64,000 nucleotides of DNA from an uncultured bacterium. GTDB lineage: Bacteria > Patescibacteriota > Gracilibacteria > BD1-5 > UBA6164. Where the stretch lies: the NCBI GenBank assembly GCA_963922865.1, contig CAWUJK010000003.1:1947-65946 (forward strand), read 5' to 3'. Positions 2,954-63,516 of the stretch are shown piece after piece. The notes under the pieces were generated by a model, which worked only from the letters and a program-made list of their open reading frames with translations, was not told the DNA's origin and did not search any database. Positions within the stretch are counted from its first letter, which is position 1; each line of letters opens with the position of its first letter. Position numbers and translations under genes: made by a program.

Positions 2954-3895
2954 ATGGTAATTTACTCTTATATTTTTTTTATGAGAAAACTTATTTATTT
3001 ACTTTTGTTTATTAATTTTAGCCAAACTTACGCTGTAGGCAGTTCAAAACAATTGGAAAAAACAAACGAAAACTCCAATTTTATACTAAACTTTTTTAGC
3101 GCAGAAATGTTTATAAATTTAGCTTTTGCTATTATTGTTGTTGTGCTAACATTTGCAATTATAAAGATAGTTGATATTAAAATAGCTAGTTTTATTGAGT
3201 CCTCTTGAAACTGAGAAAACAGGGAAGAATTATCTTGAGTTTTAAGAAGAACAGCACATATATCTATTTTAGCAGTATGATTTTCTATTACTCTTTGAAT
3301 ACTTTGAGTTGACATGTGAATATTTATGTGATGACTGTGATTTTGACTATGATTTACTCTAAAAATATTTTTATCAAATTTTATAGCTTGAGTTATAATG
3401 GTAACACAATGAAGCTACCATAATGGAGACTTAATAGAAATAGATTGAAAATCATGAAGTATCAGGAAAATTAATGCTCTTTTTACAGAAGTAGAACAAT
3501 TTGATTGAATAATATTTTTTGTTCCAAATGTAAAATTTCTTGAAAATAATGTTGAAAATTATCATAGAAACGCAACTAGGAGGATAGAAATAGAAGTTTG
3601 AGTTGATTATGATACAGATATAGTTAAATCTAAAAAGGTTATTTTTCAAGTTTTACAAAATTTTCCACAAATATTAAAATCACCAGATCCTGAAATATTT
3701 ATCACAAAATTTGATAGTAGTTCAATTAATCTAAGTATAAGGTTTTGGATAGATAGTAAAAATTGAAATTACTTTGTCACCAAATCCAATGTTACTGAAA
3801 CTATAAATCTAGCTTTCAAGCAAGCTGGTATAACTATCCCTTTCCCTCAAGTAACACTTAGCAATAGGAACGATTTTTCGGTAAAACATAGCTAA
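2954..3895 (+). CDS. mscS: small-conductance mechanosensitive channel (MscS family)
   Basis: The ORF is continuous under code 25. The translation GLGFTLKIFLSNFIAGVIMVTQGSYHNGDLIEIDGKSGSIRKINALFTEVEQFDGIIFFVPN matches the MscS pore helix plus beta domain. An alternative in-frame start is ATG 2981. Confidence 0.8.
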
Positions 3896-4028
3896 TATTA
3901 TCATATATATTTTTTAAAAAACATATAAATAACATAATTTTTATAGTAAAATATATTTGATTTTTATAGTAAATACTCTATAATTTTTATAGAGTATTTT
4001 TGTTTATTTTAAAGTATAATATATAAAT

Positions 4029-5003: not shown

Positions 5004-6431
5004 TTAAGATTTTCTTCTCTTAGCTATAGTTATGAAGAATAATCAAGCAATAAGAGATATTATTAGCATTAATATTACTTCTGTTGGTCATGTTTGTATC
5101 TTTGTTGCTTGTGATAAATCTCAAACTATTATTTCTCATGAGTTTGTTTGTGTCTTAGCCTTTACTGCAAAATATTGATATTTTACTTTTTCACCAGTTA
5201 TTTCAACTTCAAATTTAGGATTATCTACATTTTTCAGAAACTCAAACTTTCCAGTATCTTTGTTTTTCTTAAATATATCGTAGCTTTTTGCATCATCAAC
5301 TTTATCCCATGTTAATATAGATTTACTTTTGAGCTTTACCAGTTTGAGTCATTTTATTTCTAGATTTGGTAATTCTGGCTTTATTTCTTCTTTTGGTTCT
5401 TCATTTTTTACTTCAACTCAAGTACTTGTCTCTTCTAAAGCTGAGTTTACCTCTACTAGAAAAACATTTATTTTTGCTACTTCTTTTTCAGTAACTGTAT
5501 GACCTAGCGTATCTACCATTACAACATCCATAGAAAATTCTCTTTCTTCGCTTGGTGTTTTAAAAATTCAACTATATTTTCACTCTTCTGTTTCCTCTAA
5601 ATTTATTACTCAGTCATTGAATAGTAGTTTTACTGATTTTAGTCATATATTTGCAAATACTACTACTTCTACTTCAGTATTTTCTTCAACTCTTCAATCT
5701 TGAGATATAGGTGATAGCTTTATACTTTTAAATTTTGGTTTGTTATCATCTATATTTATTATAACCTCACTAGATTCTCCAATTATATTTTCATCAGCAT
5801 CTAAAGTGAATGCTTTAATAACATTATTTCATGTTATTAGTCATTCTATTTGTTTTTCAAATATTCAATCAGAGTTTGATGTAGTTGAAAATTCTTGTTT
5901 ATTATTTATTTTAATTTTTACTTGATGGTTTTTCTTTGTAGCTCATGATACTTTTAGTTCACTTCTTGGCAATGTTGTATTTGATTCTGGACTTAGTATT
6001 TCTATTTCTACTGTTTTGTTTCATGTTTCAGTTTTTGTTATATTTATTTCTCATTTTCAAGTTATATTTTCATAATCATTTGCATCATATATACTTATAC
6101 TTTGTTCTCATGATGTATTAAATTTAACTCAATTTTCAAATTTTTTTACTCATCAATCTGATAACTTAAAACTATAACCATCATTGTTTGATAACTCTTC
6201 TGGTATCTCTATAGAATCATCAGTTTCTGAAAAACCAAAAACATTACCTGTATAATCTGTTACTATTTCATCATTTTTATCTAATGCTGTTATAGTTAAA
6301 TCTAATGCCTCTCAAACTCAAGTTACTTTTTTGTTAAACTCTACTTTAAAATTATCTACAGTTCAAGCAAAGGCGTAACTTAAATTGGAAGTAATTAACA
6401 AAACTAGAAGAATTTTTAACAATTTTTTCAT
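5004..6431 (-). CDS. secreted, C-terminally membrane-anchored hypothetical protein (475 aa)
   Basis: I scanned every codon in this frame and found no TAA or TAG. The N-terminus MKKLLKILLVLLITSNLSYA looks like a signal peptide. The C-terminus ILMLIISLIAGLFFITIAKRRKS looks like a TM anchor. The interior is repetitive and beta-rich. Confidence 0.75.
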
Positions 6432-6534
6432 AATTATTTTAAATAATGTTTTAATATACACTATAATATTATAGTTTTTGACAAAAAATGCTAATTATTT
6501 TACAAAAAATAGATTTACATTTTTGTATTTTATG

Positions 6535-7608
6535 TTATAGGAGAATTATATTTATATTTTTTTCATAATCTTTTCTTATGGAACTTATAAATGTTTGATA
6601 TCATTTTATACTTTTTAAAATTATATTTTTATGCTTTTCATCAATTTCACTAAGTAAATCATCTATTACTAAAATAGGCTTTTGTTTTAAAAATTGTTCT
6701 ATAAAACTTATTTCTAAAAGCTTCATTCATATAATTACTGATTTTACTTCTCATCTACTGGCAAATTCCACTAAAGATATTTTGTTTACATATATTTCAA
6801 AATCATCATTGTGTGGTCACATGCTTGTTGATCAAATGATTATATCTTTTTTTAAATTTTTTTCTAAATTTTCTAATATTTGTTTTTGTATATATTCTAT
6901 TTTTTCTTTTTTATTAAGCTTTTTATTGTTTAATATTTTTGTTTTATACTCAAAATTAATACTTGAAATTTTATTTTCGAAATAAACATCAAAAGTTGAT
7001 ATGTTTTCTTTGAAAAAATTTGTTATTCATATTCTATAATTGTATATTATGCTAGCTTGTTTTACAAATTGTTTATCCCAAAATTCTAACTCTGTTTTTT
7101 GAGAATTTCATTCTCTTATATTTTTCAAAATCTTATTTCTTGAGCTAAGTATTTTTTTGTATTTGCTTAATATTTCTTTATAATTTTCAAATACTCTTAT
7201 TAAAATATCATCTAAAAAGTCCCTTCTTAAATTAGGAGATAAATACATTATATTCATCATTATAGGAGAGAAAAATACTATTTTTTCTATTTTTGAGAAT
7301 AATTTTTTTTTAGCTACTTTTTTCCAGTTGTATTTATATATCTTTTTTTTACTTGTTTTTTCGTATGATAGGCTGATATTGTTTCATAATATATCCTCTA
7401 TTTCTATATACAATACTTCTTTGTTAAATTTTACTAAGTTATCAAAATCTATTTTTGATATGTTGGACAAATGCAGTAGAGATATCGCTTCTAGTATATT
7501 TGTTTTTCATTTACCATTTTCTCATATTATTGCATTTATTTTTTCATCAAAAAAAAACTGTGAATCATCAAAATTTCTAAAATTTTTTAATTTTAGTTTT
7601 TTTATCAT
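6535..7608 (-). CDS. recF: DNA replication and repair protein RecF (357 aa)
   Basis: The whole frame was scanned and has no TAA or TAG. The N-terminus reads MIKKLKLKNFRNFDD...GENGKGKTNILEAISLL (Walker A, with both G residues encoded by TGA). The length is typical of RecF. Confidence 0.9.
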
Positions 7609-7895
7609 TACTTCATTATATTAGATATAGCAATTTGATCAGCAATAATTTGTTGTTCACTACAGTTTAGTAATTGCTGTCTTGATATTTCTTTTTTAGT
7701 TAATTCATCTTTTCTTGGATTATTCTCTTTTGATATAACACAATATGTTGGTTCAATATTTTTGGTATCAACTTCATTTAATAGCTCAAAATATTTTAAT
7801 ATCTCATTTATTTGATTTTGTGTGTTTCAATCTTTCAAAGGTATTTTACTGAGTTTTTGTGAAATTTTTTTTATTTGTTCTTGTGTTAATGTCAT
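7608..7895 (-). CDS. gatC: Asp/Glu-tRNA amidotransferase subunit C (95 aa)
   Basis: The translation reads MTLTQEQIKKISQKLSKIPLKD...LNEVDTKNIEPTY...PRKDE. Its TAA stop overlaps the recF ATG by 1 nt. Confidence 0.75.
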
Positions 7896-14710: not shown

Positions 14711-15493
14711 ATGAAAGAACTCATAACAAAAATCCAAAAATTATATACATTTTTTCCTTTAAATAATGTTATGTCAAAATCTTTGAAAGATTTTTTGGAT
14801 GTTAAATATAATTATAATTCTAATGCTATTGAATGAACTACTCTTACAGAAAAAGAAACAAGCTTAGTTTTGAAATGAGAAACAATTCCAAGACATAGTT
14901 TGATAGAACATTTTGAAGTTATAAACCATAAAAACGCTTTTAATTTTATATTCGAGTTAACAAACTGATTCAAATATTCCCCAAAAAAATTTGGAGAAAT
15001 ATTTACTGAAAAAAATATATTAAAAATACATAGCTTTATTTTAACAAATATAAATAATGATTTTGCTTGAGTATATAGAAGACAAAATGTAAGAGTAGCT
15101 TTTTCTAACACTATTTTTCCAAGATATGAAAAAGTAGCTACTTTGATGAAGAGTTTTTTTAAAGAAATATTAGAAAAATATGAGAAAATTGATATAGAAA
15201 ATAAATTAGATGTTTTAAAGTTTTGATATGATATACATTTAAAGTTCGTAAAAATACATCCATTTGTTGATTGAAATGGTAGAACGGCTAGATTAATAAT
15301 GAATTTATGGTATTTATATTCATTAAATAATTTAAACATAATATATTTTAAAAATAGAAAAGAATACATTGAAGCTTTAGAAGATTCGCAGAAAAATATC
15401 CAAAAATATTATGATTTTATGAATAAAAACTTTTTACAATTTAAAAACGAGGAATTAAAATTAATTGAAAATAAAGAAATTTATAAATATTAA
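14711..15493 (+). CDS. Fic domain protein (class II, N-terminal inhibitory helix)
   Basis: The Fic motif HPFVDGNGRTARL is present. An upstream SNAIEG matches the (S/T)xxxE(G/N) inhibitory motif. Confidence 0.85.
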
Positions 15494-15499
15494 AAAAAT

Positions 15500-16417
15500 A
15501 TGATAAGAGAACTAAAAATCTGAAAAATAAAATGGATAGATTCAGTATGAGCTAACAAAACGGAGATAGAAAACATACTTACCAAATATAATGCACATGA
15601 ACTTGACATAGAAGCTTGTATAGAATGAAACCAAAAAGCTAGAATAGATAGTTATCCTGAGTATTATTTTTTGATATTTCATTTTCCAAAATATAACCAA
15701 ATAAAAAAAACATATTCACTCAATGAATTTAATATATTTATGGATAAAGATACATTAATAACTTTTAGAGATAATCCATGAATACATATAAATAAAATAT
15801 TTGATCACTATAGTGATATCAAAATAACAACCAAAAAGAAAAACATAAAAGTAACAACATGATATATTCTTTACGAAATAACCCAAGTAATGCTTGAAAA
15901 AATGTTTAGAATAACCAAAAATATAACACTTGATATAAAAACAATTGAAACAAAAGTATTTGATTGAGATGACTCAACTAAACTAGTTAAGCAGATAATG
16001 ATACAAAAAAGAAATATAATTACCCTAAAACATATGTTTAAACCTCAAGTCTCATTATTAAAACAACTAGAAACAGTAGTTAATAAAATATATGCTTGAG
16101 AAATGGAGGTTTATTTTGAAGACCTAGAAGACAAACTTGATCAAATAGTTAGCGAAATAAATATACTAGAAGAATACATAGATTCTATAGAAGATGCTTT
16201 TAAATCAATAGTTGATATAAAAACCAATTCTGTAATTAAAATACTAACATCCTTTTCAGCATTTATGCTACCTCTCACACTTATAACAAGTTTTTATGGT
16301 ATGAATATTAACCTGGAACCATACAATAATATTAAAATAGTTTTATTTTTCTTAACTACAAGTTTATTTTTAATGTGAATTATATATATTTTTCTAAGAA
16401 AAAACTGAAGATTCTAA
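15500..16417 (+). CDS. corA: CorA-family magnesium transporter (305 aa)
   Basis: The C-terminus has two TM helices flanking the YGMN motif (FYGMNINLEP). Confidence 0.85.
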
Positions 16418-16527
16418 CTAATAAAATAAATCATAATTTAAAAACTATTAACCTTAAAATTTTAAAACTTGCCAAATCAAATAAAATCATATAATCCTTA
16501 AGATATAAAAATAATAAAAACTCAAAA

Positions 16528-17919
16528 ATGCTTTGAAAAATAACAATTATAGGTAGGCCAAATGTAGGTAAATCAAGTTTTTTTAATATGTACACATGAC
16601 ATAAAATAGCAATTATTGATGATGAATCTTGAACTACACGCGATATATCAGAATTTGAATATAGTGATAAACAAAATGATTTAAACTATATTTTATCTGA
16701 TTCATGATGACTTGATTTTGAAAATAAAAACGATGAAGTAGCCGAAGACATTATAATAAAAACAAAGCAAGCAATAAATGATTCAGATTTATTAGTTTGG
16801 CTTATAGAATATGATAAATTTACACAACTTGATGAAAAAATACTTAAACTATTAAAAAAGAAAAATTTTAATAATTATATACTGCTTGCCAATAAAGCTG
16901 ATAATGATTCAAAAATAATGGAATCTTGGAATTTATCAGGTTTATGAGAATTAGAATTTTTTCCTATATCAGTATCTCATAATTCTTGAATAAGCAAAGT
17001 AAAAAACTTTGTAGCAAAACATCTAAAAAAACTAGGATTAAATTATAAAATAGAAGATTTAGATGATAGTTTTGTAAAATTAGCAATGATAGGTAGACCA
17101 AATGTGGGGAAGAGTAGTATGATAAATTCTATTGTTGGTTTTGATAGGGTGATGGTAAAAGACTTAGCATGAACAACGCGTGATAGTATTGATACAAAAT
17201 TTCAGTATTCAAGTAAAAATGAGGTACAAAGCACAAACTTTGTTTTAATTGATACAGCTGGAATCAGAAGACTTAGTAAAGTTTGAACTAGAAATGTAGA
17301 AAACTGGTCTGTGATGAGAAGTCAAAGAGCTCTCAAAAGAGCAGATATAGTTGCTGTTGTAATAGACTGATATGAATGAGTTGTTTCTCAAGACTTATCT
17401 ATAATTAATCAAGTTTTAGAAGAAAATAAATGACTTATAATAGTTGTTAATAAATGGGATAAAGTTTTACAAAAACCTTGAATAAACAAAGAAAATATGA
17501 TGAACAGATATATTGACTATCTTCAAGAAAAAATAGAATTTATACCGTGGGTATCTGTTATATTTACTTCAGCAAAAGATAATAAAAGAGTAAATGAAAT
17601 TTTACAAAGAGCCAAAGAAATAAAACAAGAAAGACACAAAAGAGTAAAAACAGCAATATTAAATAATTTTTTAGAACAAGCTACTTATAAACATCCACCA
17701 ACTTGAAATAAAAAATCACATTCTCCGAAAATATATTATTCAACCCAAGCAGATACAAATCCACCAAAATTTGTTTTTTCAGTAAGCAACCCAGATCATT
17801 TTCATTTTTCATATAAAAGATATCTTGAAAATAGAATAAGAGACAATTTTTGATTTGAAGGTACACCTATAATTATTGAATATAGATGAAGATGAAAAAA
17901 TAAATGAAAAACTAAATAA
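16528..17919 (+). CDS. der: ribosome-associated GTPase Der/EngA (463 aa)
   Basis: There are two GTPase domains (GRPNVGKSS twice, SGTTRD/AGTTRD, NKAD/NKWD) and a KH-like C-terminus. The last 38 codons lie in the first 179-bp repeat copy. Confidence 0.95.
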
Positions 17920-17984
17920 TATATGTTTAATACATATATTTTTTATTAGCTTCATGCTCAGCATTATTTTTTCCATAATAAATT
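17806..17984. repeat. 179-bp direct repeat, copy 1 (der 3' end in use; mltG 3' end is a remnant here)
   Basis: It is base-for-base identical to 19471-19649 by my manual comparison. A further 16-nt match, taaataaaaccaatat, lies at 17991-18006 and 19670-19685. Confidence 0.9.
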
Positions 17985-18184
17985 ATTATTTAAATAAAAC
18001 CAATATCTATTTAAAATGAATTTTAGATATAGCTATGTTTAATAATAAATTAAGTTTAAAGTAGTAATAATAGAAAAGAATTGGTAGATTTATTAGACAA
18101 TATAAAAATATTAATTTTTTATTTGATTTTCATTTATCTTTAATATATAATAAACATTGTAATTTACATATAATGTAAAAAGAA

Positions 18185-18751
18185 ATGTCTAAAGATATTT
18201 TAAAATTATCAGAATCATCAAATTCTGTTTTAACATACTGAGAAATCTATTCCATAATAGAGGCAAATACGCCTTTTTATAAAAAAAGAAAAATAGACCT
18301 GTATGAAAAAAAATGAATTTTAAATAGAATAGTAAAATGATTCTACTGCCTAAATTGAAGAAAATACAATAAATTTGAATTAGTAAATAAAATGTACTCA
18401 CCAAGTTACATATCTTTGTTTTCAGCACTTTATAAGCATAAAATGATTTTTCAATTACCAGAATCTGTATTTTTAATATATACAAGAACATTTGAAAAAT
18501 ATATAGACAATACCCATATAGTATCTAAAAGATTAAAGGAAGATATACTTTTAAATATAGATGGCTTAGTTAATAAGGATAACTACACTATAGCATGTCC
18601 TGAAAGAGCTTTACTTGATACCATTTATTTTTATTGAGAAACATATATTGATAATCTTGATATGATAGACTGGGATAAAACTATTAGGCTATCTAAAATA
18701 TATAATAAAAAAACTCAAACAATAGTTAAATCCTACATTTCTAAATTGTAA
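18185..18751 (+). CDS. abiEi: AbiEi-like antitoxin / transcriptional regulator (188 aa)
   Basis: ATG 18185 to TAA 18749. It is a small protein immediately upstream of, and 4 nt from, a nucleotidyltransferase-type toxin. The motif PERALLD is typical of AbiEi C-domains. Confidence 0.6.
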
Positions 18752-18755
18752 ATAA

Positions 18756-19463
18756 ATGAATGCGATGATTAGTAAATTTTCAATAGAAAAACATAGGCAA
18801 ATAATGATTAAACTTCTTATTGCCATCTTTAAAGATGATATTTTATGAAAAAATCTAATATTTAAATGATGAACTGCACTATATTTATTTTATAGTTTAG
18901 ATAGATTTTCTACTGATCTAGATTTTGATCTTATTTTTGAAAATTTTGATAATAAGTTAATTATCTCTAAACTAAAACCAATAATGGAAAAATTTGGTAG
19001 TATCAAAGATTTAAGAATTAAAAAACACACTATTTTTTGACTATTGTCTTATTGAGAACTTGAACACAATATAAAAATTGAGATTTCTAAAAGATGAAAA
19101 AGTTGAGGATTTGAATCAAAAAATCTTTTTTGAAAAAATATATTGACTATGAAGTTATGAGATATGACAGCAAATAAATTGATTGCTCTGACTCATAGAA
19201 ATAAGCTTGCTAATAGAGATATTTATGATATATATTTTATTTTTAATAATAATTTACCAATTAATTATAAACTAATAGAAAAAAATACATGATATAAATA
19301 TAAAGACTTTATCCAAATGACAATAAATTTTTTAAAAAAATTACCAAAAAATTACAACATATTAGATTGATTAGGTTTGGTTTTATCTAATACTCAAAAA
19401 AACTTTGTAAAAAAATTGTTAATAGAGGAAACAATTTCTTACCTTTCAATTGAGCAATCATAA
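18756..19463 (+). CDS. abiEii: AbiEii/DUF1814 nucleotidyltransferase toxin (235 aa)
   Basis: The translation reads LIFKGGTALYLFYSLDRFSTDLDFD, an NTase GG...DxD core. ANRDIYDIYF lies downstream. Confidence 0.7.
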
Positions 19464-19470
19464 CTTTGAA

Positions 19471-19649
19471 TTTTCATATAAAAGATATCTTGAAAATAGA
19501 ATAAGAGACAATTTTTGATTTGAAGGTACACCTATAATTATTGAATATAGATGAAGATGAAAAAATAAATGAAAAACTAAATAATATATGTTTAATACAT
19601 ATATTTTTTATTAGCTTCATGCTCAGCATTATTTTTTCCATAATAAATT
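19471..19649. repeat. 179-bp direct repeat, copy 2 (mltG 3' end in use; der 3' end is a remnant here)
   Basis: It is identical to 17806-17984. It contains a promoterless copy of the last 38 der codons. Confidence 0.9.
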
Positions 19650-20593
19650 TTTCAAGTTTTTACATTATGTAAATAAAACCAATATTTAGTTTCTTGATGA
19701 TTTAGGGTTGAATCTATTGTTATATTATTTGGATTTGATATAGGAGTCTTGGGTAATCATAACATAGTTCTAGTATTATACTGAGATTTTTCATTGATAT
19801 ATTTTGATACTACCATCTTGCATTTTTGACTAGTTAGCTTATGTGCATAACATACTGTTATATCTGCTCAAATTTTCCATCCAGAATTTAATCTTTTTTT
19901 TAATATTCCTGCAACAATTCTCTTTTGGGAATTATTTTTTTCTTCTTTCTCAACTATACTAGCTAAATTAATTAGATCATAAATTTCATCATTTGTTAGT
20001 TTTTTTTCACTTAATATTTTTTCATAAACCTTTTTTTCAAAAGTATCAAGTTGTTTTATTACAAGCTCATTGATTTTTAATGGATATTTTAAAGAATATG
20101 TATCAGGATATAAGTATCATTCTAAACTTATAAAATCCTTATCCAAAAATTTATAAAATTTTGTTAAAGCTTCTATTTTACTATTACTATTTACATATTT
20201 TGTATATTCTCATTTTTTTATTAACCCTTTTTTATATAAATATTCATCTATATCATAAATATTCCATCATTCCAATATAGTTAAATTAATTTGCCTTTCT
20301 GCCATAGGATTTTCTAAAGAACTAATTATATTTTCTATATTAGACTCTTTTTTTATTTCAAACCTTCATACTAAAAGTTTGAAGTTTTCTTTGTTGTTTT
20401 TTATGTAGTGTTTTAAAAAATAATAATTTATATCTAGTTTATTAGCTAGATCTTTAACTGTATTTCAAGGTTTTATATCAATAATTTTTTTTGCATCAAT
20501 TAAAATATCATTTTTAAAATTATGATATGAATAAAACAAATAAGAAATTATAATAATAATCAATACACTAAGTAGCCTTGCTATATTTTTCAT
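19592..20593 (-). CDS. mltG: endolytic murein transglycosylase MltG/YceG (333 aa)
   Basis: It has an N-terminal TM segment. The motifs YLYPDTY, LASIVEKE, YNTRTMLGLPKTPISNP and NAEHEANKK are present. Confidence 0.85.
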
Positions 20594-22944: not shown

Positions 22945-23156
22945 AGTATTTTTAAATTATTTTTTATTCAATCCTATTATGTAATAGCTAAGCATATATT
23001 AATATTATCCCATAAATTTTAAAAAAAAGCAACTATTGAAATTTAAAAAGTTTTTAACATTTTTTGCTATTAAAAATAGCATTTTTTTTTGATTTTTGTT
23101 AATTAATAAATATATTATTTGTAATGTAATTTTATATAACTTAAAAAAATTGACCA

Positions 23157-23735
23157 ATGGAAGCTTTTTTAAAAAAAATTGTAGATTGAAATAAGTTTGA
23201 GTTAACTATTGATACTAAGATTTTTAGTAAAGATTTAGTATTAAAGACTTCTTATAATTTTTTAGATTTATGATATTTTTATTTTAAGATGTCTTGAAAC
23301 AATATTGTATTACAGCTTACAAAAAAATCTTGAGATAAAAGAGATTTAGAAGATATCATTTGAGATTTTTCAAGCTCTCTACTTGAGACTTATTTGAGAG
23401 ATAAACTAGAGCGTGATAATAAATCTATCAGAGAAGCTATAGTAGAAAAAGCTATTAATGGTCCTTTGGATGCTAATAATTTTGTTTCTCTTGACACTGA
23501 TAAATGACAAGAAGCTTGAGAACAAACACAGCAAAATCAAATAGACTTTGATAAAGATATAGATGAAATATTAAAAGAGATAGAAAATGATCCAGAGCTA
23601 AAAATAGACGAAGAAGAGATAGAAAAAATATTAAAAGAAATAGAAGAAGAAAGTGAAAGCGAAGCCTCAGCAAAACCTTCTATTAAAATTGATCCAAATG
23701 CTGTAAAAAATGCTAAGAAAAATTTTAAAAAATAA
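23157..23735 (+). CDS. hxsD: HxsD-like protein with acidic C-terminal extension (192 aa)
   Basis: The frame was scanned and is clean. The N-terminal ~100 aa end in SSLLETYLRDKLERD, resembling the LLNDYxLRE signature I recall for the HxsD family. It sits directly upstream of hxsB. Confidence 0.6.
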
Positions 23736-23756
23736 ATTAATATATACTAAGTATTT

Positions 23757-23954
23757 ATGGAAAAACAATATAAAATAGATGGTGATATATATAGTAATGA
23801 AATTATAAATGATGCGATTTCTAGTTTTTCTTGAGTTGCTGATATAAAATATGAAAATAATATGATTTCTATCAGTGCAAGTAATACTTCTGAAGTAGAA
23901 GAGATTTTCAATGAATTTATGAATTATTGTATACATTTAATTAATGAGATATAA
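23757..23954 (+). CDS. small HxsD-like or unknown protein (65 aa)
   Basis: The frame is clean. It ends 2 nt before the hxsB ATG. The C-terminus reads EEIFNEFMNYCIHLINEI. Confidence 0.5.
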
Positions 23955-23956
23955 AA

Positions 23957-25426
23957 ATGTTAGATATAAAAAAAATAAATAATGCAAACACTGATAAAAT
24001 ATGATTTTTTAGGTTCAAAAAATTTGATAAAAATAAGTATTTGATAACAAATGATGCTTGAAAATTTGCTTTTTTGAGTTTGAAAGATTTTGATATTTTT
24101 CTTTCTTGAGAAAAGTTAGAAAAATTAAAAAATTATGATGATTTATTAAAAAAAGGTTTTATCAAAACAGATGATTATAAAGAAAAAATGATATGAAGTG
24201 TTGCACAAAAAAATCATTTTGTATGAGTTGGTCCTACTTTACATATGATAGTCGTTACTCTTAGATGTAATCATAAATGTGAATATTGTCATGCAGCGGT
24301 TGCTCCTATGAGCGCTAAGGAGTTTGATATGAGTAAAGATACAGCTAAAAAAATTGTAGATACTATATTTTATACTAATTCTCCTGCTTTGACAATAGAG
24401 TTCCAAGGGTGAGAAGCTTTAGTTAACTACGAAGTTGTCCAATTTATAGTTGAATACTCTAAACAAAGGGCAGAGCATCTAAAAAAAGAGCTGTCTTTAG
24501 TTATGGTTTCAAATCTTACTTTGATGAGCGAAGAAAAACTGAGTTGGTTACTTGATAATGGTGTAGACGTTTGTACCAGTCTTGATTGAGATGAATTAAC
24601 TCATAATAATAATAGGACTTGATTTGATTGAAATTCTTTTGAAAAAGTTACTTATTGGATGAAAAGAGTTAACGAGGAAAAACAAAAAAGAAATATGTGA
24701 AAAGTTTGAGCCCTTTTAACTGTTACTAAAAAAACTATTCCAAATTATAAAAAAATAATAGATTCTTATATAAAATTGGGTCTTGATTGAATATTTCTTA
24801 GATGGTTAAATCCTTATGGTTTTGCAGCTGCTCAGTTGGATAAACTAGCTTATGAGTCAGATGATTGGATAGATTTTTATAAAAAATCTCTTGATTATAT
24901 TATAGAAATAAATAAAAAATGAACTTTTTTCAAAGAGAGTATAACTTCTGTTTATTTAATGAAGATTTTTAATCCTGTAGATCCGGGTTTTATGGACATA
25001 AGAAGTCCTAGTTGAATAGCTATTTGAGGTGTGGCATATAATTATGATTGAAAAATATACGCTTCTGATGAATCAAGGATGCTTGCTAGGATGTGAGATG
25101 ATGCGTTTTTAATGAGTGATTGAAGCTGAACTCCAGAAGAGAGTTATAGAGAAATGATAAATAGTGATGTAACCAAAGCTTCTGTGCAATCTAGTTGTTT
25201 AGATTGACTTCCTTGATACAATGAGCATGTCTATAAGCCTTATATTGGTGTTGATATCATTCATAATTATAAAGTTGCCTGAAGTTTGTTTAACCCTATA
25301 AAAAAGGATGAAAAGATGAAAATACAAATAGCTATACTTGATTATATATTTGAAAAACTTCAGGATAGTGAAGTTGAGAAAATTTTTATGAGTTGGATAG
25401 CTTGAAAAAATTGAGAAAATGATTAG
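23957..25426 (+). CDS. hxsB: radical SAM maturase, HxsB-like (489 aa)
   Basis: The whole frame was scanned. The triad is CNHKCEYC and the SAM motif is EFQGGEA (second G = TGA). The long C-terminal domain and the position next to the HxS-repeat peptides match the His-Xaa-Ser system architecture. Confidence 0.8.
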
Positions 25427-25444
25427 TATATAATATATAGATAT

Positions 25445-25795
25445 ATGCCGCATAAAAAAAAGAAAATTTTTCCAAAAATTAAAAAGAAATTAAAATGATT
25501 TTTAACTGATGAGAGTTGAAAAATTAGTAAAAAAGATGCATTGGGTTTAGCTGCTGGGAGTGTTTTATTGTGAGGTGCTGGAGAGGTATGAGCTCGAAAT
25601 TATTGAAATCATATAAGTGGTTGATTTAATCTACAAAGTGGTCACCTAAATGCATCTGCTTCTGCTATTTGTAATCATGCTAGTTGACTAATTAATGGGC
25701 ACTATAGTGTTACTCCTAGTGGAACTGCTAAAATTTCTGGACATGCTAGTCATGGTAGTCATGGTAGTCATGGTAGTCATGGTAGTAGGTGGTAG
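25445..25795 (+). CDS. hxsA: His-Xaa-Ser repeat precursor peptide 1 (116 aa)
   Basis: I translated it codon by codon. It has a Lys-rich leader. The core contains HIS, HAS, HYS, HAS and four HGS triplets, and ends HGSHGSHGSHGSRW. Confidence 0.85.
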
Positions 25796-25836
25796 TATAT
25801 CTTATTAGAACATTGTAATATCTTAATTTTGTTTAT

Positions 25837-26316
25837 ATGTGAAATAAAAAAACCAAAATTTTTCCAAAAATTAAAAAGAAATTAAAATGATTTTTAACTG
25901 ATGAGAGTTGAAAAATTAGCAAAAAAGATGCTTTATGATTGGCTACTGGTAGTATTTTATTAAGTTGAGCTGATGAAATTAGCGCTGGTCATTCAAACCA
26001 TGGTAGTCATAGTAGTTGACCTGGTTGACATTTGAATCAAGGTCACGCTAGTTGAAATTTAAGATCGTGACATGTTAGTGCTAATCCTGGTGCAGTAACT
26101 AAGACATCACATGCTAGTTGAATTGTGAATGGTCATTATAGTTCAACCCCTAATTGATGAGTTTATGATCCTGCTCATGCTAGTGGTTATGGTAATTGAT
26201 GACATTTAAATCAGTGAGCTGTTAATTGAAGACTTCATGCTAATCATGGTAATCATAGTAATCATGGTAGTCATGCTAGTCATGGAAGTCACGGTAGTCA
26301 CGGTAGTAGATGGTAA
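25837..26316 (+). CDS. hxsA: His-Xaa-Ser repeat precursor peptide 2 (159 aa)
   Basis: I translated it codon by codon. The leader is almost identical to that of peptide 1. It has about 12 HxS triplets plus HxN variants and the same HGSHGSHGSRW C-terminus. Confidence 0.85.
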
Positions 26317-26328
26317 ATTAAAGATTTT

Positions 26329-27267
26329 ATGCAAAATATTGATTTTAAAAATGTTAGTTGATTAGAAATTTCTTTATTGTATAAATGCAATGTAGGATGT
26401 GAGTTTTGTCACTTGTGAAATTTGAAAGAAGAACATGAACAAAGGTTATCCAAAGAGCAAGTATTTGATATATTAAAAAATTGATATGAACAATGAAAAA
26501 GATCAGTAATTTTTACTTGATGAGAGCCTACTTTGGAAGTAAACCTGCCAATTTATATACAAAAATCTAAAGATTTATGATTCCAACATATAAGAGTCCA
26601 CTCTAATGGTTTTGCTTTTCAAAATTATAGTTTTGTAAAAAATTTACATGATAAATGATTGACCTGAGTTACTATATCAGTTCATTGATACAAAATTATT
26701 CATGATTGTATAACAAAAACACCATGAAGCTTTGATGTTATATTTAAAAGTTTTATAAATTTTGAAAAAATAATTCTTAAAGATGATAGTTTTTCTGTTG
26801 ATACAAATACTATTATTTGCAGAAAAAATTATAAGTATTTAAAACAGCTTTTGATTTTTTTAATGAAATTTAGTATAAAAAGAAGAATGTTTACCTATAC
26901 ATTTAATACCGTCTTGTATCATGAGTTTTGAGATCTAAAAAGTATTATAGTTTCTTATGAAGAGTTGAAAAATCCCATAAATAAATTGCTTGAATTTTGT
27001 GAATTTAAGAAAATAAAAGATTTTGTATTAGATTCTATACCTTATTGTTTGATAAATGAAAAATATTGGCATTTTATAGAAGAAAATTATCTACCAGATA
27101 AACATTTTTATTTACTTGATTATTATGATTGAAATGATAATACTTACAATGATGGAAAAATAAAGTATATTGAATGTAGAGATTGTAAAAAAGATAAACA
27201 ATGTACATGATTTTCTGAGGATAATAATTTACTTTATTGAAAAATGAATTTTAATATTTTAACTTAG
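26329..27267 (+). CDS. hxsC: radical SAM maturase, HxsC-like by position (312 aa)
   Basis: The frame was scanned. The triad is CNVGCEFC. The SAM motif TGGEP is encoded as ACT TGA TGA GAG CCT at 26515-26529. The C-terminal tail is CRDCKKDKQC. Confidence 0.75.
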
Positions 27268-27272
27268 ATACT

Positions 27273-63130: not shown

Positions 63131-63238
63131 CCAAAAAATATATTTAATTTTTGAGTTTTTGAGCGGCTATATTCTTGAATAATATTTAAAACATCCAAAA
63201 CCGCTTTCAAAAATGAAAAAATTAAATATATTTTTTGG
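63131..63238. repeat. ~108-nt hairpin element (22-bp arms), homologous to 60329-60442 in the opposite orientation
   Basis: The arms are ccaaaaaatatatttaattttt / aaaaattaaatatattttttgg. Confidence 0.75.
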
Positions 63239-63497
63239 GTTTTGGGGGTTTCTAATTTTTTGTTAAATAAAAAATTGAGTACATATTTTTAAATAAACCT
63301 CTTTCAAAAAAAGAAAAAAATTAAATATATTTTTTGGATTTTGAGTTTTTCTAATTTTTTGTTAACCAAAGAATTTAATTACATATTTTTAGACAAACCG
63401 CTTTCAAAAAAGAGAAAATTAAATATATTTTTTGGATTTTGAGGTTGTTTAATTTCCTATTAAACAAAAGAAGATAAGTATATATTTTTAAATAAAA
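63201..63497. repeat. three tandem ~97-100-bp repeats
   Basis: The units start at 63201, 63298 and 63398. Each begins cc(g/t)ctttcaaaaa...attaaatatattttttgg...ttaa...atatttttaaataaa. The landmark attaaatatattttttgg recurs at 63221, 63320 and 63418. Confidence 0.8.
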
Positions 63498-63516
63498 TTG
63501 GAAAAAAAGAAAAAAA

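Follow-up and report, generated by a model that had tools for sequence, protein, structure and literature searches.

Gene content of the der/mltG locus

The subject of this analysis is a 64,000-nucleotide stretch (the window) of contig CAWUJK010000003.1 from an uncultured member of the Gracilibacteria (assembly GCA_963922865.1), in which a two-gene cassette of the AbiE family lies between the convergent genes der and mltG and is bracketed by two copies of a long direct repeat. The window (G+C content 22.6%) yields only fragments when translated with genetic code table 11, and open reading frame (ORF) calls made in this way are meaningless here; reading of TGA as a sense codon gives dense long ORFs. 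Translation with codes 4 and 25 was used instead, and the conserved glycines decided for the latter. TGA is found at the conserved glycines of the Der G motifs (DTGG, GxTRD) and at the catalytic GG of AbiEii, therefore the code is 25 (TGA = Gly), as in Gracilibacteria and Absconditabacteria. TGA accounts for 67–90% of the glycine codons in the genes checked, and the named relatives of the host, as judged by Der, are Candidatus Gracilibacteria. Public protein sets translate these genes with tryptophan at TGA (code 4), which results in a spurious identity of ~95–96% to the true protein.

Under code 25 the identities that an earlier sequence-only reading of the window had proposed for der, mltG, AbiEi and AbiEii were borne out by Pfam and PADLOC matches (Table 1). 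The inserted unit comprises 1.46 kb and consists of a 110-nt leader, a promoter, abiEi and abiEii, and it has no terminator of its own. AbiEi and AbiEii are its only coding content, in line with the same reading.

AbiE is a characterised bicistronic family of type IV toxin-antitoxin (TA) and abortive infection (Abi) systems, in which the toxin binds GTP and resembles nucleotidyltransferases with motifs I–IV (PMC3985639). The two genes of the window have this bicistronic arrangement: abiEi is located immediately upstream of abiEii on the same strand with a gap of 4 nt. The PADLOC match of AbiEi covers residues 6–179 of the 186-position profile, and 18 further AbiEi profiles match as well, which places it in the COG5340-like AbiEi family; no domain match to AbiEi was found in Pfam. 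AbiEii possesses all of the nucleotidyltransferase motifs I–IV (hG[GS]..DhD, K..A...R, [KR]DxxD), namely G38 G39-x14-D54 L D56, K141..R148 and R154 D155..D158, and these columns are invariant in 36 homologues. Thus, the cassette is a predicted type IV TA/abortive infection module with AbiEii as the putative toxin and AbiEi as the putative antitoxin and autorepressor. In Streptococcus agalactiae AbiEi acts as an autorepressor that binds inverted repeats in its promoter, and AbiE can stabilise plasmids (PMC3985639). A palindrome between the -10 box and the AbiEi start codon of the window is a possible AbiEi operator; related cassettes have a longer palindrome at the same place.

The composition of the cassette is indistinguishable from that of the host, with a G+C content of 20.7% and TGA making up 79–83% of glycine codons (67–90% in host genes), and the catalytic GG of AbiEii is encoded by TGA-TGA. 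The cassette therefore came from code-25 hosts or has resided in them for a long time. Its closest relative is just 73% identical.

Structure of the direct repeat

The perfect duplication claimed by the sequence-only reading was confirmed over its whole length of 179 nt (100% identity), and the exact match extends no further at either end. It is the sole long perfect repeat within the window, where its sequence is present twice. In copy 1, the last 38 codons of der including the stop (17806–17919, in frame with the start at 16528) are followed by a 7-nt spacer (17920–17926) and by the 3' end of mltG on the minus strand, 19 codons and 1 nt in length (17927–17984). The gene der ends inside copy 1 and mltG inside copy 2, so that each copy also harbors a dead remnant of the other gene. 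Both the contents of the repeat and this assignment of the live ends had been read correctly before, and they hold under code 25.

The der and mltG ends in the repeat are the native C-termini, which match those of orthologues, and the two stop codons, 7 nt apart, are situated within an AT-only hairpin. The second copy of the hairpin is at 19578–19610, and the structure is conserved in the related locus L173 described below. Judging from its position and fold, the hairpin probably functions as a shared bidirectional terminator of der and mltG.

To the right of the core, 14 nt of copy 2 are cleanly missing from copy 1. Beyond the deletion, positions 17985–18012 match 19664–19691 at 25 of 28 sites, i.e. 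with 3 substitutions, and 0 of 300 shuffles reached this score. The homology noticed earlier beyond the repeat was therefore real, and its form, described then as an indel-containing stretch (17985–17990 against 19650–19669) with an additional 16-nt match, is refined to a 14-nt deletion followed by 28 nt of 25/28 identity. Alignment revealed no further homology between the copies to the right of this extension and none on the left side. As the deletion and the homologous extension adjoin the core, the duplicated target comprises ~221 nt (114 nt of der, the 7-nt spacer and 100 nt of mltG, hairpin included), of which copy 1 retains 207.

Table 1. Features of the der/mltG locus and its upstream neighbors (positions in the window; genes translated with code 25).
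Feature	Position	Strand	Description
Fic	14711-15493	+	Pfam Fic
CorA	15500-16417	+	Pfam CorA
der (EngA GTPase)	16528-17919	+	Pfam MMR_HSR1 x2 and KH_dom-like; last 114 nt in repeat copy 1
Repeat copy 1, perfect core	17806-17984		Live der 3' end, 7-nt spacer, dead mltG 3' end; identical to 19471-19649
AT-only hairpin followed by T-run	17913-17945		9-bp stem and 4 outer pairs; overlaps both stops; fold z = -2.4
Decayed extension of copy 1	17985-18012	-	Dead mltG piece with 14-nt deletion and 3 substitutions; 25/28 against 19664-19691
Leader of the insert	18013-18122	+	110 nt; only weak, chance-level matches to mltG, L173 or other cassettes
Candidate cassette promoter	18123-18151	+	TTGATT-17-TATAAT; 10/12 consensus, consensus match only; layout as in related cassettes
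Palindrome TTTACAT-ATA-ATGTAAA (7-3-7)	18163-18179	+	Between -10 box and AbiEi ATG
abiEi (putative antitoxin/autorepressor)	18185-18751	+	188 aa; PADLOC AbiEi 6.9e-29
abiEii (DUF1814 nucleotidyltransferase, putative toxin)	18756-19463	+	235 aa; PF08843 9.5e-22; PADLOC 1.3e-56
Repeat copy 2, perfect core	19471-19649		Dead der 3' end, spacer, live mltG 3' end; begins 7 nt past AbiEii stop
mltG (YceG-like lytic transglycosylase)	19592-20593	-	Pfam YceG 2.3e-51
Ancestral counterpart of the copy-1 extension	19650-19691	-	Within functional mltG

Empty site in a related genome

The check proposed with the sequence-only reading, a comparison with related genomes for a single der/mltG junction, was carried out with locus L173 (GCA_029935855.1). 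Its gene order is the same as in the window (CorA-der-mltG-large protein-HxsD-radical SAM), and der and mltG are directly convergent with no AbiE between them. Window positions 15491–17984 align to L173 790–3231 and positions 19465–20548 to L173 3040–4151; the segment 3040–3231, to which both window copies are aligned (17806–17984 and 19465–19660), is single-copy in L173. Since this syntenic locus has one copy of the duplicated segment and lacks AbiE, the alignment identifies the cassette at der/mltG as a true insertion. L173 also retains the 14 nt missing from copy 1 and agrees with copy 2 at 3 of 3 mismatch sites, therefore all four changes in the extension are derived in the dead copy 1. 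An exact search for the repeat in the Joint Genome Institute (JGI) metagenomes gave 0 matches.

In the relatives with 77–81% Der identity the interval downstream of der varies. Depending on the genome (L002–L007, L174–L175), it contains PBP1 and an alpha-2-macroglobulin-like gene, a ~765-aa protein, or peptidase M3. The idea that the der/mltG junction is itself derived, which was suggested by L002–L007 (other genes in between, or no mltG nearby), was overturned by L173. A rearrangement in which the secreted large protein beside mltG is the orthologue of the 765-aa gene of L004 was discarded as well: the two show no similarity.

Perfect identity and the age of the insertion

Perfect identity of the copies had been taken to imply a recent event or gene conversion. 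The first of these conclusions is unsafe. There are 3 substitutions in the 28 dead nucleotides of the extension and 0 in the other 171 dead nucleotides of the repeat; by our own calculation, the chance of zero change in 171 dead nucleotides at the rate of the extension is ~4e-9. Because the extension has decayed while an equally dead stretch is unchanged, recency is not a safe conclusion, and perfect identity is insufficient to show a recent event. Gene conversion stands as one of two possibilities to which decay confined to the extension points: either conversion has kept the core uniform and the 14-nt deletion has cut the extension off from this process, or the extension is a junction scar left by the insertion. 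At another AbiE locus, L075, the repeat is mosaic, with identical blocks on either side of an internal patch that has diverged strongly, and this pattern favours conversion as a process that does operate in such repeats.

Absence of mobility signatures

The statement of the sequence-only reading that no integrase or transposase is present proved correct for the insert and for ~10 kb on either side of it. Neither a tRNA gene near the site nor a match to Rfam was found. Alignments of one insert end against the other at 10 loci were no better than those of shuffled sequences (p 0.23–0.99), i.e. terminal inverted repeats are absent there, and no attC core sites (RYYYAAC / GTTRRRY) were detected on either strand of the repeat.

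Direct repeats that restore the 3' end of a target gene are typical of integrase-mediated insertion, and long repeats are known at tRNA targets (PMC2853133). The two copies could accordingly be the attL and attR attachment sites of a small island without its own integrase, similar to a cis-mobilizable element (CIME), moved by a site-specific recombinase encoded elsewhere. Besides the lack of an integrase and of a tRNA gene, the repeats at different loci described in the next section are wholly different from each other, the junctions slide by tens of nucleotides, and most of the tightly bracketed units, which reach from roughly the -35 box to the stop codon, leave no space for arm sites. We regard such an island as highly improbable.

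Some insertion sequences (IS) of Mycoplasma and Mycobacterium (IS1634, IS1549) make long, variable duplications, and TA cassettes are common in integrons. It could thus be supposed that the unit is a non-autonomous transposon of the IS1634/IS1630 kind moved in trans, or an integron cassette bounded by attC sites; duplications of 19–26 bp are reported for IS1630 (cited in PMC2853133). However, the insert ends contain no terminal inverted repeats in the 10 loci (all p>0.2), the repeat has no attC core and consists of the ends of housekeeping genes, and the junctions are not at fixed positions of the cassette. The probability of this origin is close to negligible.

Direct repeats around related AbiE cassettes

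Loci encoding relatives of the window AbiEii (referred to by L numbers) were collected from species-representative genomes (80 loci) and from metagenomes (80 loci). Each was searched for a direct repeat shared by the sequences that precede AbiEi and follow AbiEii, scores of at least 20 being counted, and pseudo-cassettes shifted within the same loci served as controls in a Fisher test. Bracketing repeats were found around 18/73 cassettes in the genome loci as compared with 11/221 controls (p=7e-6), and around 12/63 cassettes in the metagenome loci as compared with 7/88 controls (p=0.04). Repeats fitting closely around the unit, with the end of copy 1 at 560–800 nt upstream of the start of AbiEii and the first base of copy 2 no more than 30 nt from its stop, are present in 15 of the 30 positive loci; ~0.4 such loci are expected by chance. 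The earlier reading of the locus as an insertion is thus retained with a qualification: the arrangement is not a single event, it recurs around related AbiE cassettes and represents a mode of insertion which already has a name (see below).

The bracketing repeats are unrelated between loci, have lengths of ~23–220 nt and identities of 84–100%, and often coincide with the 3' end or the terminator hairpin of a neighboring gene. The right junction slides from -25 to +29 nt about the stop codon, and in 3 loci the repeat supplies the stop or the last codons. The left junction is located 0–60 nt upstream of the -35 box in several loci; in L040 the -35 box spans the junction. Most of the tightly bracketed units are therefore trimmed to a minimal transcription unit that starts near the -35 box, reaches to the stop codon and lacks a terminator of its own, so that recombinase sites have no room. 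The insert of the window differs from these by its additional 110-nt leader upstream of the -35 box.

Several loci are informative individually. The repeat of L016 is formed by the last 116 nt of the UDP-glucose dehydrogenase gene, with 113/116 identical positions between the copies, and L177 provides the corresponding empty site: the flanking genes are 6 nt apart there and the segment is single-copy. The cassettes of L039 and L040 are 80% identical and have the same left neighbor but different duplications. In L075 a second, distantly related AbiEi/AbiEii pair (5763–7698) is bracketed too (105/106-nt match, the whole repeat exceeding 160 nt).

No flanking repeat is present at L010/L011 (6289–7559), which encodes one of the nearest AbiE relatives located on a long contig (58% identity). 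Its neighbors, many small ORFs and a DnaD-like replication gene, are suggestive of a phage or plasmid.

Unique direct repeats also bracket several other accessory units of small size in these loci. These are a 355-aa protein in L032 (5547–6951, repeat 49/56), which we take to be possibly RhuM-like, a SWIM-type 597-aa protein in L033 (9083–10973, 36/36), and a pair of an anti-sigma kinase and a STAS protein in L078 (1–1415, 73/74). Duplication-type insertion is therefore not exclusive to the AbiE subfamily, and it may be general in such genomes.

The last base of contig L163 is also the last base of a perfect 109-nt repeat that brackets a cassette (3846–3954). This fits assemblies breaking at bracketing repeats and may also explain the many public contigs of ~1.1–1.7 kb that contain only AbiE. 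The idea of a small circular plasmid was rejected, as 0 of 21 short AbiE contigs have terminal overlaps.

The recurrence also bears on the assembly of the window, which is part of the 85.7-kb ENA scaffold DRIS22-1_SAMN24661207_METAG-scaffold_4 from a short-read-style metagenome assembly. A repeat of 179 nt exceeds the usual k-mer sizes, and a single collapsed node used twice would make the two copies identical by construction. The arrangement might then be a mixture of an empty chromosome with a separate 1665-bp circle or with another strain. The cassette side, however, bears its own decayed fragment of mltG (17985–18012), so the cassette molecule derives from this very junction; a circle of 1.7 kb would be without a replication gene; and the same architecture with repeats of ~23–47 nt, far below any k-mer, is seen in many assemblies produced by different pipelines. 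An artefact of this kind is very unlikely.

Proposed mechanism of insertion

Most probably, the 1.46-kb AbiE unit entered the der/mltG junction by insertion with long target duplication, through illegitimate joins made without a recombinase. Neither an element-encoded nor a site-specific recombinase would have taken part. The duplication itself might have arisen in two ways: by fill-in of a staggered break, or by a template switch during replication that re-entered the chromosome upstream of the point of exit. In the product der ends in copy 1 and mltG in copy 2, each keeping a hairpin, and the AbiE operon may borrow the hairpin of copy 2 as a terminator. A compact genome would retain mainly those events that leave both neighbors and the terminator intact. 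A plain insertion between or within the overlapping gene ends would interrupt the shared hairpin or shorten der or mltG, hence duplication-type events are the ones expected to survive. Homologous recombination between the copies could remove the cassette again, but addiction to AbiE would penalise such loss, and addictive cargo may be the reason why structures of this type are seen with restriction-modification (RM) and TA genes.

The same homology-insert-homology product is exactly what a single crossover of the Campbell type generates. In that scheme a non-replicating circle, carrying AbiE and a captured ~207-nt copy of the junction, would have integrated by RecA-dependent recombination within the 179-nt identity. 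The decayed 28-nt extension directly adjoins the insert, as would be expected if it was borne by the donor, and DNA uptake is presumed for members of the candidate phyla radiation (CPR). On the other hand, this scheme needs an earlier host in which the cassette lay within mltG at 99 nt from the gene end, and a subsequent illegitimate circularisation; a donor 11% diverged in the extension and 0% diverged over 179 nt would be odd; no circular signature is present in the 21 short AbiE contigs; and the locus-specific repeats of ~23–220 nt at many different targets are left unexplained. We therefore consider a Campbell-type origin unlikely, with some residual weight, and return to insertion with target duplication by illegitimate joins.

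Several points weigh against this preferred explanation. L173 is a relative at roughly the genus level (~73% nucleotide identity) and not conspecific; no conspecific strain is on record, the closest Der besides that of the source contig being 81% identical. In a de Bruijn graph the 179-nt repeat equally fits an empty chromosome together with a 1665-bp circle. The metagenome replication set reached only p=0.04. Some of the bracketing repeats elsewhere (L022/L024) are multi-copy paralogous ends and not target duplications; these two loci were also dropped as proof of an old insertion with a homogenised repeat, as their repeat is multi-copy within the locus. Finally, the biochemical route to the duplication is unexplained even for the RM precedent (PMC2853133). 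With regard to identity and topology, a warning follows: in such repeats perfect identity proves neither a recent insertion nor, in a short-read metagenome assembly, the assembled topology.

Other features of the window

The Fic gene is located between the genes of AspRS and CorA and is absent in L173, L002 and L004; it represents a second accessory insertion. It was examined as a second insertion of the same type and rejected, as its flanking repeat of merely 12 nt is at chance level. On the other side of mltG a His-Xaa-Ser-type cluster (23145–27270) comprises an HxsD-like gene (23145–23735), two radical SAM genes and small ORFs, and its adjacency to mltG is kept in L173. The small ORFs contain repeats (25715–26316) of 9-nt CATGGTAGT-type units encoding H-G-S / H-A-S runs. 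Near the end of the window (63209–63504) a unit of ~99 nt is present in 3 tandem copies with 68–73% identity, and this array is apparently non-coding.

Relation to known systems and biological meaning

Insertion with long target duplication has been described for RM gene complexes, first in Helicobacter pylori and then in many bacteria (Nobusato et al. 2000, Gene 259:99; Furuta, Abe & Kobayashi 2010, PMC2853133). These inserts contain no other mobility genes and are flanked by repeats of 30 to ~420 bp, which occur once in genomes with the empty site and in many cases extend over the 3' ends of neighboring genes; the host species are mostly naturally competent (PMC2853133). The repeat of the window, 179 nt long when counted as exact and 207/221 nt with the extension, exceeds the 30 bp required of direct repeats in such cases. 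The resemblance includes the small complex without a mobility gene, the long, variable and locus-specific repeats, their single-copy state in the empty site and their position at gene 3' ends, as well as, presumably, the nature of the cargo, an addictive module capable of post-segregational killing. In contrast to the RM insertions, the cargo here is a type IV TA/Abi pair without a nuclease, the host is a code-25 member of the CPR, and the unit extends from promoter to stop across many related loci. The authors of the RM studies tied insertion to the DNA-breaking activity of the cargo, leaving the mechanism unexplained (PMC2853133). Because AbiE has no nuclease, a double-strand break made by the cargo is inapplicable as the driver here.

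The cassette shares with the AbiE of Dy et al. 2014 (PMC3985639) the abiEi-abiEii operon, the DUF1814 toxin with motifs I–IV and a palindrome between promoter and start codon; it differs by its very diverged sequence, an AbiEi to which Pfam is silent and TGA-coded glycines, those of the catalytic GG included. Campbell-type insertion-duplication has the same end product and is likewise reversible between the copies, but it needs pre-existing target homology in the donor, which does not agree with the many different targets of related cassettes. Islands flanked by att sites and CIMEs share the flanking repeats and the preserved gene ends, whereas integrase, core and tRNA are missing here and the junctions are variable. 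The minimal mobile elements of Neisseria are cassettes between conserved flanking genes that are exchanged by transformation. They resemble the present case in that a cassette without a recombinase lies between conserved genes and the lineage is presumably competent, but they move by homologous replacement without target duplication.

In the searchable literature the term long target duplication was not found applied to TA or Abi systems (reviews on TA mention it just in connection with RM), and a search for AbiEii together with flanking repeats gave nothing relevant. The feature is thus an insertion of a known, mechanistically unexplained kind, with a new class of cargo and in a new lineage. 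This mode has been known for ~25 years and documented for RM genes alone; it is found here with a nuclease-free TA/defence cargo, recurs across CPR genomes and is accompanied by two independent empty-site cases. The absence of a nuclease means that the mode is not bound to DNA breaks made by the cargo, and the related loci constitute a set of natural junctions for work on the mechanism. A plausible account is also obtained of how ultra-compact genomes may gain defence genes without harming overlapping essential genes.

It is conceivable, although we put this forward only tentatively, that promoter-to-stop AbiE units are self-sufficient selfish cassettes which spread by insertion with long target duplication among CPR/Patescibacteria and further uncultivated lineages, using a general host-driven route such as DNA uptake combined with template switching. 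If so, mobility would be independent of breaks made by the cargo, AbiE having no nuclease, and the products would be visible mainly with addictive cargo, since addiction would block the rapid loss mediated by the repeats.

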